Source of the DNA: a bacterium
Lineage (GTDB): Bacteria > Patescibacteriota > Minisyncoccia > Moranbacterales > GWC2-37-73
Assembly (NCBI GenBank): GCA_003251635.1
Contig: QKEW01000012.1
Location: 53,333-117,332, forward strand
DNA: 64,000 nt
Direction: 5' to 3'
The notes under the pieces were generated by a model. The model searched no databases, was not told where the DNA came from, and saw only the letters and a list, made by a program, of their open reading frames with translations. The translations under genes were made by a program, and so were the position numbers. Positions 36,930-64,000 of this stretch are shown here, piece by piece (positions within the stretch are counted from its first letter, which is position 1; the number at the start of each line of letters is the position of its first letter).

Positions 36930-36949
36930 TTACTTACATATGTAAGTAA
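36930..36949. promoter_or_regulatory. perfect 20-nt palindrome TTACTTACATATGTAAGTAA upstream of the AlkD-like gene
   Basis: Seen directly, 46 nt upstream of the alkD-like start (36884, minus strand). Candidate operator. Confidence 0.3.
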
Positions 36950-58020: not shown

Positions 58021-58360
58021 CCATCAAGGCAAGCTATAAGCCGGATTCTGTCAGGGACAATCATTTATCTGGACCTATTGTTGCCAATAAGTTCGAGCGA
58101 CACAGACCGACGACTGGCGCCGGAATACGGTCTTGCATTCAGGCAAGGATTTAGCCGTTTCACCCCCTTGTTACCAAGGGACTTTCCCGCTTAAAAAGCG
58201 GGCTATTGATCTTGCGATCAAACACGTCTCTGCTCGCACCTCTAAGATTACTCTCGACGGGAGTTACCCGCTGCCCGCACCGATTTTTCAACCGATTGAA
58301 TGTCCGGACTTTCCTCTCTTGGTCCGAAAACCAAAGGTGATTGCCGACTTACCTTGATGG
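58021..58360 (-). ncRNA. rnpB: RNase P RNA (bacterial-type, about 340 nt)
   Basis: The minus strand contains GAGGAAAGUCCGGAC (P4 5' strand / CR-I) and ACAGAAUCCGGCUUAUAG (P4 3' strand / CR-IV), plus GGGGGUGAAACGGC. A P1 helix is formed by 5' CCAUCAAGGUAAG and 3' CUUGCCUUGAUGG. Region otherwise devoid of credible ORFs. Confidence 0.8.
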
Positions 58361-58418: not shown

Positions 58419-59651
58419 TTATTCTTCAATTTCCAACTCGTTACTTTGACAGATTTTGGCGTATTCATAGAAACTCCGGCGCGGTGTACGCTTTTGAGTT
58501 TCAAAATCAACCTCCACTAAACCGAAACGCGGTTCAAAACCATAGAGCCATTCAAAATTATCCATCAAGGACCAATGATTGTAACCTCGCACATCTACGC
58601 CCTCTTCAATGGCCTGGTGAATAAATTTCAGATGATCTTTTATAAAATCTATTCTTTCTTGATCATCGATTCCCACATCCGTCGGGACTCCGTTTTCAGT
58701 AATATATATCGGCAGATTGCGCTCTTTGGCAACTTCTTTCAAAACTTTATAGATACCATCTGGATAAGTGATCCAGCCCATCAAATTTTGCTTATTATCT
58801 TCAACTCTAATTCCAAAATAAATTTGATTTTTCGAATCCATTCTGATGTTTTTCCAATCAAATTTGATTCTTCCCAAACGATAATATTGAACCGCCATAA
58901 AATCAAGTTTGTCCTTGATTTTTCCATCAATCAAATCTACTCGAAACCATTTTGAAACTCGATTTATGATTTTAACTACAAAACCAAGATTTTCAGATTC
59001 ATACCAATTGTACAAATAACTCATCCCAACTGGAACATTGGGATATTTCTTTTTTATAATTTCATATGCTTTTTTGTATGATTCGGCCACACCCGCAGCC
59101 GCTCGAAAAAATTTCCAGGGATTCATGAATCCCGGCGGAAAGACTTTACCCAAATAGCCTTGTCCTAACGGCACCATTGGTTCATTAAAGACTTGATACA
59201 TATCCACAAATTCCCCCAATTCATCCACCACTTTTTGAGCATAATTGGCAAACAAATCCGACGCTTTTTGGTGATGAAATCCGTATTTTTTTGTAAACCA
59301 ATCCGGACTAACCCACCACCATAAAGACAATTGGACATGCAAACCTCTTTTTTTCAAATCACCCAAAACTTCTTTGTAATGCTTGAATTCTTTTTGATCA
59401 AATTTGTCTTTTTCCGGTTGCAAACGCGCCCATTCAACTGACAGACGAAAAGTGTTGCAGCCCAATTGTTGCAGCAAATCATGATCGGATTTAAAGCGAT
59501 TGTAATAATCACTGGCCAGGCCGGACTTGGTTTCGATTTTGCCTTCTTGCTCCCAGCGCCACCAATCGGTATTTTTATTATTGCCCTCAACTTGATAGGA
59601 AGAGATGGCCGTTCCCCACAAAAACCCCTCAGGAAATTTTAATTTTTTCAT
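58419..59651 (-). CDS. glycoside hydrolase family 1 beta-glucosidase
   Basis: FPEGFLWGTAISSYQVEGN (N-terminal GH1 signature), catalytic YITENG motif, and FNEP acid/base region. Confidence 0.88.
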   Translation of the reverse strand: MKKLKFPEGFLWGTAISSYQVEGNNKNTDWWRWEQEGKIETKSGLASDYYNRFKSDHDLLQQLGCNTFRLSVEWARLQPEKDKFDQKEFKHYKEVLGDLKKRGLHVQLSLWWWVSPDWFTKKYGFHHQKASDLFANYAQKVVDELGEFVDMYQVFNEPMVPLGQGYLGKVFPPGFMNPWKFFRAAAGVAESYKKAYEIIKKKYPNVPVGMSYLYNWYESENLGFVVKIINRVSKWFRVDLIDGKIKDKLDFMAVQYYRLGRIKFDWKNIRMDSKNQIYFGIRVEDNKQNLMGWITYPDGIYKVLKEVAKERNLPIYITENGVPTDVGIDDQERIDFIKDHLKFIHQAIEEGVDVRGYNHWSLMDNFEWLYGFEPRFGLVEVDFETQKRTPRRSFYEYAKICQSNELEIEE

Positions 59652-60238
59652 AAATTCTCAAAATAATTTTTGATTTTTTCGGCGGTTTTGGGTTGATCGA
59701 TAACCAAAAGATTTTCTTGCAAGAATTTGACCAAAAATTCACTACCCCTCATTTTGCCGGAAAAAATCATGTCCAAAAATTCTTCCCACTCCACCAGATA
59801 CACTTGAATCTTTTCCCCAGCATCCAATTTTTGTTCAGTCACTTTGCGGCAATCTTTGGCCAGAAAAAAATACAAAGTCCAGTCAATTTTGGAAGTCAGT
59901 TGAGCACTGTGCCAAAGTTTTATTTCTCCACATTCAAATCCGGCTTCTTCCAAAAATTCTCTTTGTACCCCTTCGACCGGCGATTCTCCTTCATCTATCA
60001 TACCACCCGGAATACTAAAAAATTTACCTCTTACCGGTTGCTCCTGTTCTAAAACCACAACTTTTCCTTCTTCAGTAAATGCAATCACGCTAGCTGTATC
60101 AAGTTTCTTTACCACTTTTTCAAAAGTTTCCGTGCTGCCATCAAACATTTCTTGCGGCCATTGGTAAACATCAAAAATCTTTCCGGCAAAAACCTTCTTG
60201 GCATTTTCCGGCATTGATTTTTTCTTTTTTTTCTTCAT
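59648..60238 (-). CDS. NUDIX hydrolase
   Basis: Nudix box GGMIDEGESPVEGVQREFLEEAGF. It overlaps the GH1 start by 4 nt (ATGA). Confidence 0.8.
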   Translation of the reverse strand: MKKKKKKSMPENAKKVFAGKIFDVYQWPQEMFDGSTETFEKVVKKLDTASVIAFTEEGKVVVLEQEQPVRGKFFSIPGGMIDEGESPVEGVQREFLEEAGFECGEIKLWHSAQLTSKIDWTLYFFLAKDCRKVTEQKLDAGEKIQVYLVEWEEFLDMIFSGKMRGSEFLVKFLQENLLVIDQPKTAEKIKNYFENL

Positions 60239-60255
60239 AAAATTAAAACTTATTT

Positions 60256-60924
60256 TTATTTTGTAATACTTTTGACTATTTTATCCAAATCATCTATTTC
60301 TTTCTCTTTCACGAAATAATTATCATAAACTATGGAATCCCTAACCGTAACCACCCAAGCTTTTGATATCAGCTTTTTAATTTTTTTATCTCTTCTCTTT
60401 CTTTGTTTTACACATTCAGATAAAAGAAAGCTATTCAATTTTTTATGATCTCCAAATTTTTCAATTAAAATTCCATATAATGTGAGAAATTTATCATTTA
60501 ATGTTTCCCTACGCTTATTTCCATATAAACTAACAAGTCTAATCTTTCTATTTTTCCTTAATTTATTAACATTTTTTTCAAATTTATCCAAATTAAATTC
60601 TGATCTAATGAGTCGTTTTATGGTCAATCTTGTTGTAACTGTTTGTCTACCATTTGGTAATTTTATAGTGTCTTCTTCAAATGGTTCACTCATAACAAAA
60701 TTTCCATACAAATAAGCAAAGCAGTCGTTTATCTTTTTGGCAATTTTTTCAGCTTGTTTTTTGGCTAAAACCTGATCTTCGGCTTTTACTAAAATTCCAA
60801 CTTTATCTATAACTCCTTCACTATTGGAAACAAAGTCCAAATCCGTATCAAACATCCTGACTTTTAAAGAATTCGATTCAAACATTTCATTGGCCTTAAA
60901 ATAAACATCGTAATCTTCCATCAT
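60256..60924 (-). CDS. hypothetical protein (222 aa), Lys/Asn-rich, no recognisable domain
   Basis: ORF with markedly lower GC than the flanking genes. It lies downstream of the TrpR/YerC-like regulator and its palindromic operator. Confidence 0.4.
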   Translation of the reverse strand: MMEDYDVYFKANEMFESNSLKVRMFDTDLDFVSNSEGVIDKVGILVKAEDQVLAKKQAEKIAKKINDCFAYLYGNFVMSEPFEEDTIKLPNGRQTVTTRLTIKRLIRSEFNLDKFEKNVNKLRKNRKIRLVSLYGNKRRETLNDKFLTLYGILIEKFGDHKKLNSFLLSECVKQRKRRDKKIKKLISKAWVVTVRDSIVYDNYFVKEKEIDDLDKIVKSITK

Positions 60925-61028
60925 AATTACTTTACATTAAAGATTCTAAATCAAGTTCAGAATGACAAAATTTAATTTTCTTATTCTTTTTTTCCATAAA
61001 CTTATTTGCAACAAATATTATCCCACTG

Positions 61029-61052
61029 TTACCATATATTAATATATGGTAA
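61029..61052. promoter_or_regulatory. perfect 24-nt palindrome TTACCATATATTAATATATGGTAA (candidate operator)
   Basis: Seen directly, about 105 nt upstream of the 222-aa hypothetical gene and just downstream of the YerC-like gene. Confidence 0.4.
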
Positions 61053-61093
61053 CGAAACCAATTTATTCTTTAATTCAAAAAAGTTCACACAAA

Positions 61094-61561
61094 TCATTTA
61101 CCAAAAATATTTTTTATAAAACGATGGTATGGATATTTATCCAATAAGCTATCATACTCAATCGTATTATTTATTTGGTTACTTTTGTCGCTCTTCCCGA
61201 TCTTTTGTATTTTATTTTGCAACCAATTGTTATATTTGTCATCTCCACCGTGCAACCATTGATAAGTTCTTTGAACTGTGGCGGTACCAACTTTCAATTT
61301 TTTTCGAATTTCTTCATAACTCTTATCTTCCAATAACATTTGAGCTATCTGAATACGCCTTGCCACCATCAAGGCCTCGCTGGGAGTAAACAGTCCTAGA
61401 AAAAAATTAATAATTTCTTGCTTGGTTTTCAAGCTAGAAACAACCTCAAATAAACTATTAATAGCTTGGTATTTTTCTTTAGGTTTAACTGTATGAGGCT
61501 TAACTTTGGCCATTAGCAAAAATAAAATTCTTACACCAAAATTATACCATACTTTTTTCAA
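61094..61561 (-). CDS. TrpR-like DNA-binding protein of the YerC/YecD family
   Basis: FLGLFTPSEALMVARRIQIAQMLLEDKSYEEIRKKLKVGTATVQRTYQWL matches the YerC/YecD HTH core. The start may be the internal ATG at 61513 (MAKVKPH...). Confidence 0.6.
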   Translation of the reverse strand: MKKVWYNFGVRILFLLMAKVKPHTVKPKEKYQAINSLFEVVSSLKTKQEIINFFLGLFTPSEALMVARRIQIAQMLLEDKSYEEIRKKLKVGTATVQRTYQWLHGGDDKYNNWLQNKIQKIGKSDKSNQINNTIEYDSLLDKYPYHRFIKNIFGK

Positions 61562-61573
61562 AATAATTTTCTA

Positions 61574-61597
61574 TTACCATATATTAAAATATGGTAA
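61574..61597. promoter_or_regulatory. second copy of the palindrome (TTACCATATATTAAAATATGGTAA), upstream of the YerC-like gene
   Basis: Seen directly. It has the same 9-nt arms as the copy at 61029-61052, with one substitution in the spacer. Confidence 0.4.
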
Positions 61598-61751
61598 TGA
61601 AAAAGAATTTGTCAACCGACTAATTCAAGCTCGTCTTTATTACTTTCTTTTATGGATGTCTTTAACTATTTTTAATAGCCAGCCAAACAACTAATCCTAA
61701 CAATAGCAAGATAGCAACGCTTAATATTATTAATGTCATGCTAATTTAAAA

Positions 61752-63026
61752 TTACTTCTTAATCTCAATCTTCTCTAAATTCCCCGGCATCCATTTTTGC
61801 AGGACTTTTGGAATCAGCACACTGCCATCAGCTTGTTGGTGATTTTCCAAGACAGTAATTAGGGCCCGTGAAATGGCCACTGCCGTACCATTGAGCAAAT
61901 GGGCAAATTCTTTGGAACCGTCGCTGTTTTGAACCTTGATATTTAGGCGACGCGATTGATAGTCAGTTGTGTTGGAAGTTGAAGTCACCTCGCCCCAGCC
62001 ATTTTTGGAGACCATGTAGGCTTCCAAATCATATTTGCGATAAGCCGGTCCGCCCAAATCGCCAGTGCAAATATCCACCACTCGAAACGGCACTTCCAAA
62101 TCTTGAAAAATTTCTACTTCAATTTCTTTGAGCTGCTCGTGAATTTTTTCTGAATCAGCCGGTTTGGCATAAATAAACATTTCAACCTTGGTAAATTGAT
62201 GAACTCGATAGAGTCCGCTGCTATGCTTGCCATAGGCTCCGGCTTCAGTTCGAAAACAATGTGAAAGCGCCACATATTTTTTCGGCATGTCTTTTTCCAG
62301 CAAAACCTCTCCGCTGTGATAGCCTCCCATGGTGATTTCAGCCGTTCCAACCAATGACAAATCCGTATTTTCAATATTATAGATCTGCGATTCTTCCCCG
62401 CGCGGATTAAAACCAATTCCTTCCAAAACTTTTTGCCGCGCCAAATCCGGGGTAATCACCGGCACGAAACCTTTGGATACCAATTTATCCAAAGCAAAAT
62501 TAATCAAAGCCATTTCCAAAAGCGCGCCTTCGTTTTTCAGAAAATAAAACTTAGAACCAGTCACTTTGGCCGCTCGTTCAAAATCAGCCAAATCCAAATC
62601 CAACATAATTTCCTCATGGGTTTTTGGCTGGAAGTCAAACTCCGGAATTTTTCCATAAACAGCAATCTCTTGATTTTCTTCGTCAGTTTTTCCAATCGGT
62701 GAATCCGGATGAGTCAGATTTGGCACCGTCAACAAAATTTGCTCAAACTTCTCGGAAATTTTTTTCAACTCAGGCTCTTTGGCTTCCAACTCGGCTTTAA
62801 TTTTTTTGCCTTCCTCAATGATCTTCGGTCTTTCTTCGGCAGAAGCTTTCTGAATTTTCTCGTTGAGAGAATTTTTCTGAGCACTAAAACTTTCCACGTC
62901 TTGAATCAATTTTCGCCTTTTTTCATCCAATTCCAAAAGTCGATCCACCTCGCATTTAGCCGCCCGATTCTCACAATTTTTCTTCACCAAATCAGCATTT
63001 TCCCGAATAAATTTGATATCCAACAT
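61752..63026 (-). CDS. serS: seryl-tRNA synthetase
   Basis: N-terminal coiled-coil arm, class II motif 2 FRTEAGAYGKHSSGLYRVHQFTKVEMF and motif 3 GTAVAISRALITVLENHQ. Confidence 0.92.
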   Translation of the reverse strand: MLDIKFIRENADLVKKNCENRAAKCEVDRLLELDEKRRKLIQDVESFSAQKNSLNEKIQKASAEERPKIIEEGKKIKAELEAKEPELKKISEKFEQILLTVPNLTHPDSPIGKTDEENQEIAVYGKIPEFDFQPKTHEEIMLDLDLADFERAAKVTGSKFYFLKNEGALLEMALINFALDKLVSKGFVPVITPDLARQKVLEGIGFNPRGEESQIYNIENTDLSLVGTAEITMGGYHSGEVLLEKDMPKKYVALSHCFRTEAGAYGKHSSGLYRVHQFTKVEMFIYAKPADSEKIHEQLKEIEVEIFQDLEVPFRVVDICTGDLGGPAYRKYDLEAYMVSKNGWGEVTSTSNTTDYQSRRLNIKVQNSDGSKEFAHLLNGTAVAISRALITVLENHQQADGSVLIPKVLQKWMPGNLEKIEIKK

Positions 63027-63426: not shown

Positions 63427-63549
63427 AAACATGGCTTGCGCTTTTTTGCAACTTTTTTGGCGCCAAAAAAGTTGAGTCAAGAAATAATAAAATTTAAGCC
63501 ACTTCCTTTACTGCAGACATACTGGCAAAAATAATTATTTTCATAACTA

Positions 63550-64000
63550 CTAAAATCTATTTTCTATAAACCGAATTAACTTATCATTTGTAAAATTATA
63601 AATATATGGAACAAATCTCAAGACATCCTTCTTTTCTATATTTTTCAAGTTCTTAATTGTCCATACTTCAAATCCAAAAGATTTGCCTTTTTCGATCTTT
63701 AAATCTTCAATCCTACCTTCATATATATAGACAAACTCTTTTTTAAAGGCATAATTAATCTTACCACTTACTTCATCCCTAGATTTATCACAAACCTTAT
63801 CGATTGATATCAAATTATTTTCACTTATTATTAGCCCCGTCTCCTCTAGAGTTTCCTTAACAGCAGTCTTTTCATAGCTATCTCCAATTTCTACGTGTCC
63901 GCCGACTGTTCCATCTAGAAGATCAGGGAATGTATCTTTGCTTTTGGCACGATGTTGAAAAATTATTTCATTTTTAGGCGTGACAAAATAAACGTGAATT
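63550..64000 (-). CDS. NUDIX hydrolase, N-terminus beyond window end
   Basis: Minus-strand translation from the window edge gives ...FQHRAKSKDTFPDLLDGTVGGHVEIGDSYEKTAVKETLEETGLIISENNLISIDKV... (Nudix box GGHVEIGDSYEKTAVKETLEETG). The 87-aa ORF in the track is its C-terminal portion. Lower GC than surroundings. Confidence 0.7.
   Translation of the reverse strand, partial: IHVYFVTPKNEIIFQHRAKSKDTFPDLLDGTVGGHVEIGDSYEKTAVKETLEETGLIISENNLISIDKVCDKSRDEVSGKINYAFKKEFVYIYEGRIEDLKIEKGKSFGFEVWTIKNLKNIEKKDVLRFVPYIYNFTNDKLIRFIENRF

Follow-up and report, generated by a model that had tools for sequence, protein, structure and literature searches.

Introduction

The closest described relatives of the system treated here are small repressors of the TrpR family. 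The YerC protein of Bacillus subtilis has been identified with HisR, a histidine repressor of the TrpR family whose palindromic operators measure 20 base pairs (bp); histidine-stimulated DNA binding has been shown in vitro for the HisR of Ruminococcus gnavus, about half of the hisR genes are predicted to be autoregulated, and the operator consensus is lineage-specific (PMC9413887). HisR proteins, of which that of Eubacterium eligens is an example, have under 100 amino acids (aa), and their consensus, cacTTTA-N6-TAAAgtg, is like the published TrpR consensus TGTAcTnGTnnACnAgTACA a 20-bp palindrome, TrpR recognising GNACT half-sites at 8-bp spacing (PMC9413887). Here we describe a stretch of 64,000 nucleotides (nt) from a bacterium of the Moranbacterales (lineage GWC2-37-73; assembly GCA_003251635.1, contig QKEW01000012.1, positions 53,333 to 117,332; "the window" below), in which the gene of a TrpR/YerC-family regulator lies between two nearly identical palindromes that are probably its own operators.

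Autoregulated TrpR-family repressors with palindromic operators are already known; what differs in the window is that the sites bracket the regulator gene, that the protein carries an additional tail, and that operator sequence and target genes are not those of TrpR or HisR. DNA-looping repressors with flanking operators include lambda CI (OL and OR), GalR (OE and OI) and LacI (O1, O2 and O3), where the second operator serves as an auxiliary site. Transcriptional regulation is very poorly known in bacteria of the Candidate Phyla Radiation, and our search of the literature found no paper linking TrpR- or YerC-type regulators to Patescibacteria or to that radiation. The present locus offers a concrete, predicted pairing of regulator and operator that is conserved over dozens of uncultured genomes.

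Two palindromes bracket a regulator gene

Coordinates are those of the window; the palindromes and genes in question lie at 58-63 kb, where every gene is on the minus strand. The four features at the centre of the analysis are, in the direction of transcription:

61573-61598, no strand assigned: site U, ATTACCATATATTAAAATATGGTAAT, a 26-nt palindrome and putative operator upstream of the regulator gene
61094-61513, minus strand: gene of the TrpR/YerC-family regulator, 139 aa, with a TrpR-like helix-turn-helix core and a conserved C-terminal tail
61028-61053, no strand assigned: site D, GTTACCATATATTAATATATGGTAAC, a perfect 26-nt palindrome and putative operator between the regulator stop codon and orf222
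60256-60924, minus strand: orf222, 222 aa, the first gene after site D, no family assigned

The original prediction had pointed to two 24-nt palindromes, TTACCATATATTAATATATGGTAA at 61029-61052 and TTACCATATATTAAAATATGGTAA at 61574-61597; both are where it placed them, and each extends to 26 nt. Site U is centred at 61585.5, with 60 nt between its end and the regulator ATG (61513). The centre of site D, at 61040.5, is 545 bp from that of site U, and site D lies 36 nt past the regulator stop codon; the ATG of orf222 (60924) follows site D at a distance of about 104 nt. Together with their direct-repeat flanks the two sites have 32 nt in common at 91% identity. The proposed motif search showed them to be the only places in the 64 kb where the motif occurs with three or fewer mismatches (0.01 expected), and a relaxed core, CCATAT-N6-ATATGG with one mismatch allowed, again occurs only at sites U and D (0.10 expected).

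The regulator is a TrpR-fold protein with an added tail

Judged by its profile matches, the regulator is a bona fide TrpR-fold helix-turn-helix protein, as its earlier description as TrpR/YerC-like had implied. It matches Pfam PF01371 (Trp_repressor) with 70.6 bits (1.2e-19, cut-off 27), residues 19-101 covering profile positions 3-86 of 88, and passes the YerC/YecD model TIGR02531 (54.7 bits against an NCBIfam cut-off of 42.2), which by that model places it in the same subfamily as HisR; with 39 bits it fails the TrpR equivalog TIGR01321 (cut-off 67.25). Among solved structures it is closest to the TrpR-like 3FRW, 3G1C and 3KOR, the first two being proteins from gut Firmicutes. A word-index search returned 37 relatives of about 132-147 aa, and those named are Moraniibacteriota. 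Since these relatives share the N-terminus MxKVKPH (MAKVKPH in the window protein, from the family alignment), we place the start codon at 61513. No second regulator paralogue is present in the 64-kb window.

In TrpR, residues Thr44, Arg54, Thr81 and Arg84 contact the tryptophan ligand. When the regulator family is aligned with Escherichia coli TrpR by hhalign (probability 87%), Thr44, Arg54 and Thr81 fall on conserved family residues, the first two of them near-invariant. Arg84 falls on a variable position, which is Arg in the window regulator and Ala, Lys, Ser, Asn or Thr in its relatives. The protein is also longer than a TrpR core of about 90-110 aa: its 139 aa include a conserved C-terminal tail of about 35-40 aa that ends SLLDKYPxHRFIKNLF in the family alignment. 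The shorter HisR proteins do not have this tail; the chains of the solved YerC/HisR-type relatives (104-119 aa) align only to profile positions 9-107 and stop without it.

The bracket is conserved in related genomes

A scan of one genome per species yielded a set of 59 loci (these and other related loci are cited by number below), most of them in genome bins of Moranbacteria or Parcubacteria. The 300 nt upstream of each regulator gene were compared with the 300 nt downstream, and a bracket was scored when at least 18 of 20 nt were shared. A bracket is present in 54 of 60 loci (about 90%), against 8 of 300 (2.7%) in a control that paired the flanks of different loci. In the relatives that have it, the upstream copy lies 5-251 nt before the regulator ATG, and the downstream copy follows the stop codon by 0-140 nt in nearly all loci. 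Exceptions are L019 and, furthest removed among the homologues, L067-L069, which come from Peribacteria, Saccharibacteria and a further Parcubacteria bin. The palindrome sequence varies among lineages and is often identical within a locus over 20-28 nt, sometimes over 43-72 nt. The closest relatives (L192, L194 and L195; 63-68% identity of the regulators) have the same layout as the window, and L001, L003 and L004 (60-63%) carry a pair of 26-nt palindromes of another sequence, ACTTCCATATATCCATTTATGGAAGT.

Nine genomes with two regulator paralogues bear on the pairing of protein and site. In all nine, the paralogues being 42-60% identical, each is surrounded by a distinct palindrome; such genomes thus hold natural "orthogonal" pairs of paralogue and putative operator. 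Many Moranbacteria genomes hold two paralogues, each with an operator sequence of its own (for example L045, 4109-4400).

A scan of metagenomes for the exact pattern TTACCATAT-N6-ATATGGTAA gave many single matches, as chance predicts in so large a collection. Nine metagenome loci have at least two exact copies, and in eight of them (L084, L104, L121, L149, L152, L157, L163 and L168) the copies bracket a regulator homologue; the ninth, L177, has no tblastn match to the regulator within the stretch examined. One 788-kb metagenome contig has just three exact copies, two around the regulator, with a CYTH gene next, and one in a different intergenic region. The motif is thus no generic repeat.

The chromosomal neighbourhood of the regulator differs by lineage. 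In many relatives it is pheS-pheT and in some others serS, which in those relatives is downstream of the regulator and in the window upstream. From these comparisons, the regulator with its presumed flanking operators is an ancestral unit, vertically inherited in Moranbacteria and related Parcubacteria.

The sites have the geometry of TrpR-type operators

An alignment of 123 distinct half-sites, centred on the dyad, yields yTwCCATATA as the consensus for positions -12 to -3. The core CCATA occupies -9 to -5, that is, about 5-9 bp from the dyad, and conservation within it reaches 81% and 68% at the two C positions, 78% at A and 89% at T. When the sites are shifted against themselves by 8 nt, self-identity is 0.558, compared with 0.283 in shuffled sites (z about 21); the next-highest value, at a shift of 10 nt, is 0.356 (z 4.9). 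Judged by eye, the spacing of the outer arms is 18 nt in most lineages and 26 nt (18+8) in L029, L045, L047 and L063, where the site interiors read as repeated 8-mers such as CCATATAT CCATTTAT GG. Of 147 site copies, 136 are intergenic. The sites therefore match a TrpR-type operator: they are palindromes of about 20 bp, their half-site cores lie some 5-9 bp away from the dyad, and they show an 8-bp register. Since they vary in sequence and in length (18 or 26 nt between outer arms) they form an operator series that could be used to study specificity and tandem binding in the TrpR family.

Likeness and difference can be stated for each known system. With HisR the regulator shares, besides its subfamily, a palindromic operator of about 20 bp whose consensus is lineage-specific; unlike HisR, its sites read yTwCCATATA...TATATGGwAr rather than cacTTTA-N6-TAAAgtg, and operators on both sides of hisR have not been described, whereas here the gene is bracketed. 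E. coli TrpR has the same helix-turn-helix fold and is autoregulated, as we predict for the regulator, and its consensus core lies at the same distance from the dyad as that of the regulator; the HisR consensus is broadly similar in this respect. Tandem TrpR dimers, reportedly described in an 8-bp register by Lawson and Carey in 1993, are paralleled by the 8-nt periodicity of the regulator sites. Half-site sequence and the bracketing of the regulator gene, by contrast, set the system apart from TrpR. Like the looping repressors, the regulator has its own gene flanked by two near-identical putative operators at a distance of a few hundred bp; unlike them it belongs to an unrelated protein family, and its second operator is a near-perfect duplicate that also sits on the putative promoter of the next gene rather than an auxiliary site.

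Candidate promoters and genes behind the sites

The candidate promoter elements and neighbouring genes are:

61752-63026, minus strand: serS, upstream of site U
61541-61549, minus strand: alternative extended -10-like element TGGTATAAT, a second candidate regulator promoter, 27 nt downstream of site U
61017-61025, minus strand: extended -10-like element TGgGATAAT of the putative orf222 promoter, starting 3 nt after site D
59648-60238, minus strand: NUDIX hydrolase gene (Pfam PF00293, 1.6e-15), 17 nt after the orf222 stop codon
58419-59651, minus strand: GH1 glycoside hydrolase gene (Pfam PF00232, 1.2e-80), its start overlapping the NUDIX stop by 4 nt
58021-58356, minus strand: RNase P RNA, bacterial class A (Rfam, 122 bits), directly downstream of GH1

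The order of transcription is accordingly serS, a 25-codon open reading frame (ORF), site U, regulator, site D, orf222, NUDIX, GH1 and RNase P RNA. The NUDIX gene is probably co-transcribed with orf222, and GH1 is probably the last gene of an orf222-NUDIX-GH1 transcription unit. With its -10-like element starting 3 nt past site D, the putative orf222 promoter would have its spacer and -35 region covered by that site; in the close relatives L194 (TGGGATATAAT) and L195 (TGGGTATAAT), whose sites are similar, a -10-like element likewise directly follows site D. At site U the best sigma-70-like match on the minus strand combines TTGACA (61615-61610) with TATTTT ending at 61586, 18 nt apart, and since TATTTT ends there the -10 would lie inside site U. 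For the alternative, TGGTATAAT, no tool scored significance. It is from the sequence of these elements that we infer the promoter assignments at both sites.

In most loci a co-directional gene begins 20-180 nt after site D, and in many loci further copies of the site precede successive neighbour genes, some of them in tandem. L013 and L014, for example, have the order site, nucleotidyltransferase, site, regulator, site, SDR, site, TerC, site, glycosyltransferase. L020 (2409-4568) carries tandem arrays of 2-3 copies, 83-84 nt from start to start, before the regulator and two neighbours, and tandem copies 63-87 nt apart occur in L011, L015, L048 and L056. The genes behind the sites include many nucleotide-directed hydrolases and related enzymes (NUDIX, HAD/NT5C, Maf, HD in two cases, CYTH in three, TatD, LigT, a cytidylyltransferase, RibD_C/DHFR and an AAA_18 kinase-like protein), together with SDR, TerC, glycosyltransferases, PAP2, Peptidase_S51, LepA and several without a family. 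None of these genes belongs to histidine biosynthesis or transport, unlike the targets of HisR, and there are no trp or aro genes among them, unlike the targets of TrpR. The YerC/HisR scaffold would thus be used here outside amino-acid biosynthesis, with many nucleotide "house-cleaning" hydrolases among the genes behind its sites.

Proposed mode of action and alternative explanations

The reading that we consider probable, with fairly good confidence, is that both palindromes are cognate operators of the regulator encoded between them, as the original prediction had proposed from the layout of an autoregulated repressor with one operator before its own gene and one before a neighbour. The points that carry it have all been computed: the conservation of the sites, their uniqueness in the window, their geometry and their pairing with individual paralogues. 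That layout is borne out by the bracket and the paralogue-specific palindromes, and it is further backed by the TrpR-type geometry, the 8-nt periodicity and the -10 element after site D. In such a scheme the regulator would bind yTwCCATATA half-sites either as one dimer or, like TrpR, as several in tandem with an 8-bp register. Bound at site U it would regulate its own gene; bound at site D, against the -10 element, it would occlude RNA polymerase and repress orf222-NUDIX-GH1. Binding would presumably be tuned by a small-molecule ligand, the part played by tryptophan in TrpR and by histidine in HisR, and the gene placed behind the downstream operator would vary by lineage, being in the window the low-GC (guanine plus cytosine), nearly orphan orf222. 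Binding by the regulator, the sign of regulation and the ligand are here what we infer from the sites and the protein family, and we hold the sign and the role of the downstream copy with less confidence than the operator assignment itself.

Several observations weigh against this reading, or against parts of it. A promoter consensus scan gave matches no more numerous than in shuffled sequence, and across loci no offset between -10/-35-like elements and sites is sharply preferred. Measured from the transcription start that TGGTATAAT implies, site U is centred at about -51, a position as suitable for an activator or for looping as it is for a repressor. In about five loci (L045, L063, L046, L026 and L059) site D is followed by a convergent gene, so that there the downstream copy is no operator for the promoter of the next gene. 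The putative targets are functionally heterogeneous, with the consequence that no physiological signal can be named, and the agreement between recognition-helix sequence and site sequence that is seen across regulators is confounded by phylogeny.

Some of the same observations would fit a bracket that acts mainly in cis on the regulator gene, in which a loop of about 545 bp, or a roadblock at site D, tightens autoregulation or insulates the gene. We regard this main rival, or complement, as unlikely, if deserving of serious weight, and to the corollaries that control of orf222 is incidental or absent and that the conserved C-terminal tail perhaps holds the loop we give similarly limited credence. 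The bracket is kept whatever gene lies downstream, even by the loci with a convergent neighbour; the paired copies are often identical over the 20-28 nt, sometimes 43-72 nt, noted above; the family-specific tail has no assigned role; and some loci have tandem arrays, such as that with 84-nt spacing in L020. Because the convergent loci retain site D, the bracket may also act in cis, by looping or as a roadblock. A mainly cis-acting bracket is harder to reconcile, however, with the co-directional gene that follows site D in most loci, with the -10 element that abuts it in the window, L194 and L195, with the extra copies before additional neighbour genes, which a purely cis function does not need, and with an inter-site distance that varies from about 500 to 900 bp.

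The remaining explanations fare less well. The palindromes could be RNA hairpins on the regulator mRNA, serving as 5' or 3' stabilisers, processing sites or terminators, which we hold to be extremely unlikely. If transcribed, the two sites would indeed fold stably (-12.8 and -13.6 kcal/mol, z = -3.6 and -6.9), and both arms change between lineages as they would in compensatory stem change; but the arms are AT-rich with no T-run after them, no terminator-like site was found in 60100-61800, and Rfam has nothing at the sites, the RNase P RNA being its sole match in the window. Of 680 arm positions 63 are mismatched, of which just 9 are G:T and 31 are A:A or T:T, and the arms are conserved in sequence beyond the ability to pair. 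The 8-nt direct periodicity and the 18/26-nt arm spacing seen by eye have no rationale in a hairpin, and in 9 loci the two copies match best when one is inverted relative to the other, a change that alters the RNA and leaves the duplex DNA site the same. An intrinsic terminator or RNA hairpin was accordingly rejected, on the absent T-run, the few G:T mismatches, the periodicity and the sequence-conserved arms. It is highly unlikely, too, that the repeats are recombination or mobility sites delimiting gene cassettes that are gained and lost as units, even though gene content beside the sites varies among close relatives and two indels are bounded exactly by sites: where L015 (3932-3960) has a single copy, L001 (4230-4958) has an extra AAA_18 gene between two identical copies, and an extra 63 nt in L015 relative to L001 is bounded in the same way. 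Such indels fit recombination or slippage between short direct repeats equally well, so that cassettes are allowed and not required, and the short repeats appear to mediate gain or loss of the adjacent AAA_18 gene. No recombinase or transposase was found near the sites in the window neighbourhood or in the relatives, orf222 has no second flanking site, and other replacements break inside genes: a 39-codon ORF after site D in L001 (5446-5565) is the N-terminal remnant of the NUDIX gene found behind site D in L003 (1998-2495), L015 and L017, with a HAD hydrolase and a phosphoribosyltransferase in L001 replacing the rest. From that remnant it follows that the slot behind the downstream operator turns over by replacement. 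Next to no probability attaches to a generic dispersed repeat (like a repetitive extragenic palindrome or a miniature inverted-repeat transposable element), or to the site of an unrelated global factor, that lies near the regulator by chance; nothing specific favours this beyond an AT-rich, simple sequence and the chance single matches in very large metagenome collections, and against it stand the two copies in 64 kb and three in 788 kb, sequences that are specific to a paralogue and always beside it, and a bracket frequency of 90% against the cross-locus null of 2.7%. A joint reading, in which operators bridged by the tail of a Moranbacteria-specific TrpR/YerC subfamily give autoregulation by looping and the 26-28-bp repeats also serve as recombination substrates, strikes us as quite unlikely; were it true, an operator-delimited cassette array would place acquired genes such as orf222 under a resident repressor.

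orf222 is a compositional outlier and almost an orphan

Sites U and D and the regulator had been taken, together with orf222, for a low-GC islet acquired horizontally. The low GC is real: orf222, at 27.5% (z = -3.8; 22% at third codon positions), is the lowest of the 55 ORFs in the window and the regulator, at 31-33% (z = -2.5), the second lowest, against a gene mean of 38.8%. Acquisition is supported for orf222, a compositional outlier and nearly an orphan, but not for the regulator and its palindromes, which are conserved across Moranbacteria. In 42 of 43 related loci the regulator gene is likewise below its neighbours in GC, the mean difference being 4.5 points; low GC is thus a trait of the family and no sign of transfer. 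Of the regulator block, only orf222 looks acquired, and it was probably inserted recently before the NUDIX gene; the nearest relatives of the regulator (63-68% identity) sit in a gene context different from that of the window. It appears, then, that a recently acquired orphan gene has landed behind a resident operator.

The 222-aa protein had been described as lacking a recognisable motif, and indeed it matches no family in Pfam, NCBIfam, PADLOC or PHROG. A word-index search with it returned only itself, HMMER, run exhaustively against 1.8 billion representative proteins, returned one fragment of orf222 and six relatives of 25-31% identity, and a profile search added three more; on these searches its family is tiny and sporadic in distribution, and orf222 itself almost an orphan. 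The structure prediction that had been suggested gave AlphaFold models with a predicted local distance difference test score (pLDDT) of 41 from the single sequence and 56 with a 7-sequence alignment. Searched with Foldseek against the PDB, the latter model gave nothing below E = 0.1, and a profile search against PDB sequences gave noise only.

The idea that orf222 is a phage-defence or abortive-infection effector remains speculative, with no match to PADLOC, PHROG or phage: none of seven family members matches a PADLOC model, and tblastn against 50,697 phage records found no match. In L007 (3507-8876) a homologue is flanked by a 622-aa N6/N4, type III-like methyltransferase on one side and a 915-aa ResIII/RE_endonuc (Res) protein on the other, next to TerL and ParB genes; in L197 (1071-4693) one follows RadC, an Eco47II-type endonuclease and a C5 methyltransferase. 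Homologues in L005 and L006 stand in front of two NUDIX genes, and those in L009 and L010 are near a Y1 transposase and a RhuM gene. With restriction-modification genes adjoining the homologue in 2 of 5 contexts, an accessory or defence-island role is possible, if weakly suggested. The NUDIX genes beside orf222 in the window and beside the L005 homologue have only generic NUDIX-box similarity, and as the genes of unknown function, of about 190 aa, by three of the homologues are mutually unrelated, orf222 has no conserved partner gene. Four homologues (P0040, P0042, P0043 and P0044) show sub-threshold matches to MauJ (PF17419; 12.5-20.4 bits, cut-off 28), in which the start of the profile aligns with residues of about 130-190, the most conserved stretch of the family (LLSxFGDxxR...KFLxFYK). 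We treat this similarity as a lead; orf222 itself has no match to PF17419.

Other features of the window

A third palindrome, at 36930-36949, had been thought to share the architecture of sites U and D. It is real, a perfect 20-nt palindrome (TTACTTACATATGTAAGTAA) between two minus-strand genes and 46 nt upstream of a 236-aa gene (start 36884), and does not match the regulator motif even at three mismatches. TTACTTACATATGTAAGTAA is itself unique in the window at three or fewer mismatches (0.01 expected) and may serve another factor as its operator.

Two short minus-strand ORFs lie close to the sites. That of 25 codons between serS and site U (61662-61739) encodes a strongly hydrophobic sequence (MTLIILSVAILLLLGLVVWLAIKNS) and may be a small membrane peptide or spurious. 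The other, of 21 codons (60932-60997; MEKKNKKIKFCHSELDLESLM), lies downstream of the putative orf222 promoter, ends 7 nt before the orf222 start codon, and could be a leader peptide or spurious. In base composition, the RNase P RNA (58021-58356) accounts for a local GC peak, and a second low-GC stretch (26-31% GC) occupies 63450-63900 at the window edge, where it holds an 87-aa ORF on the minus strand (63550-63813).

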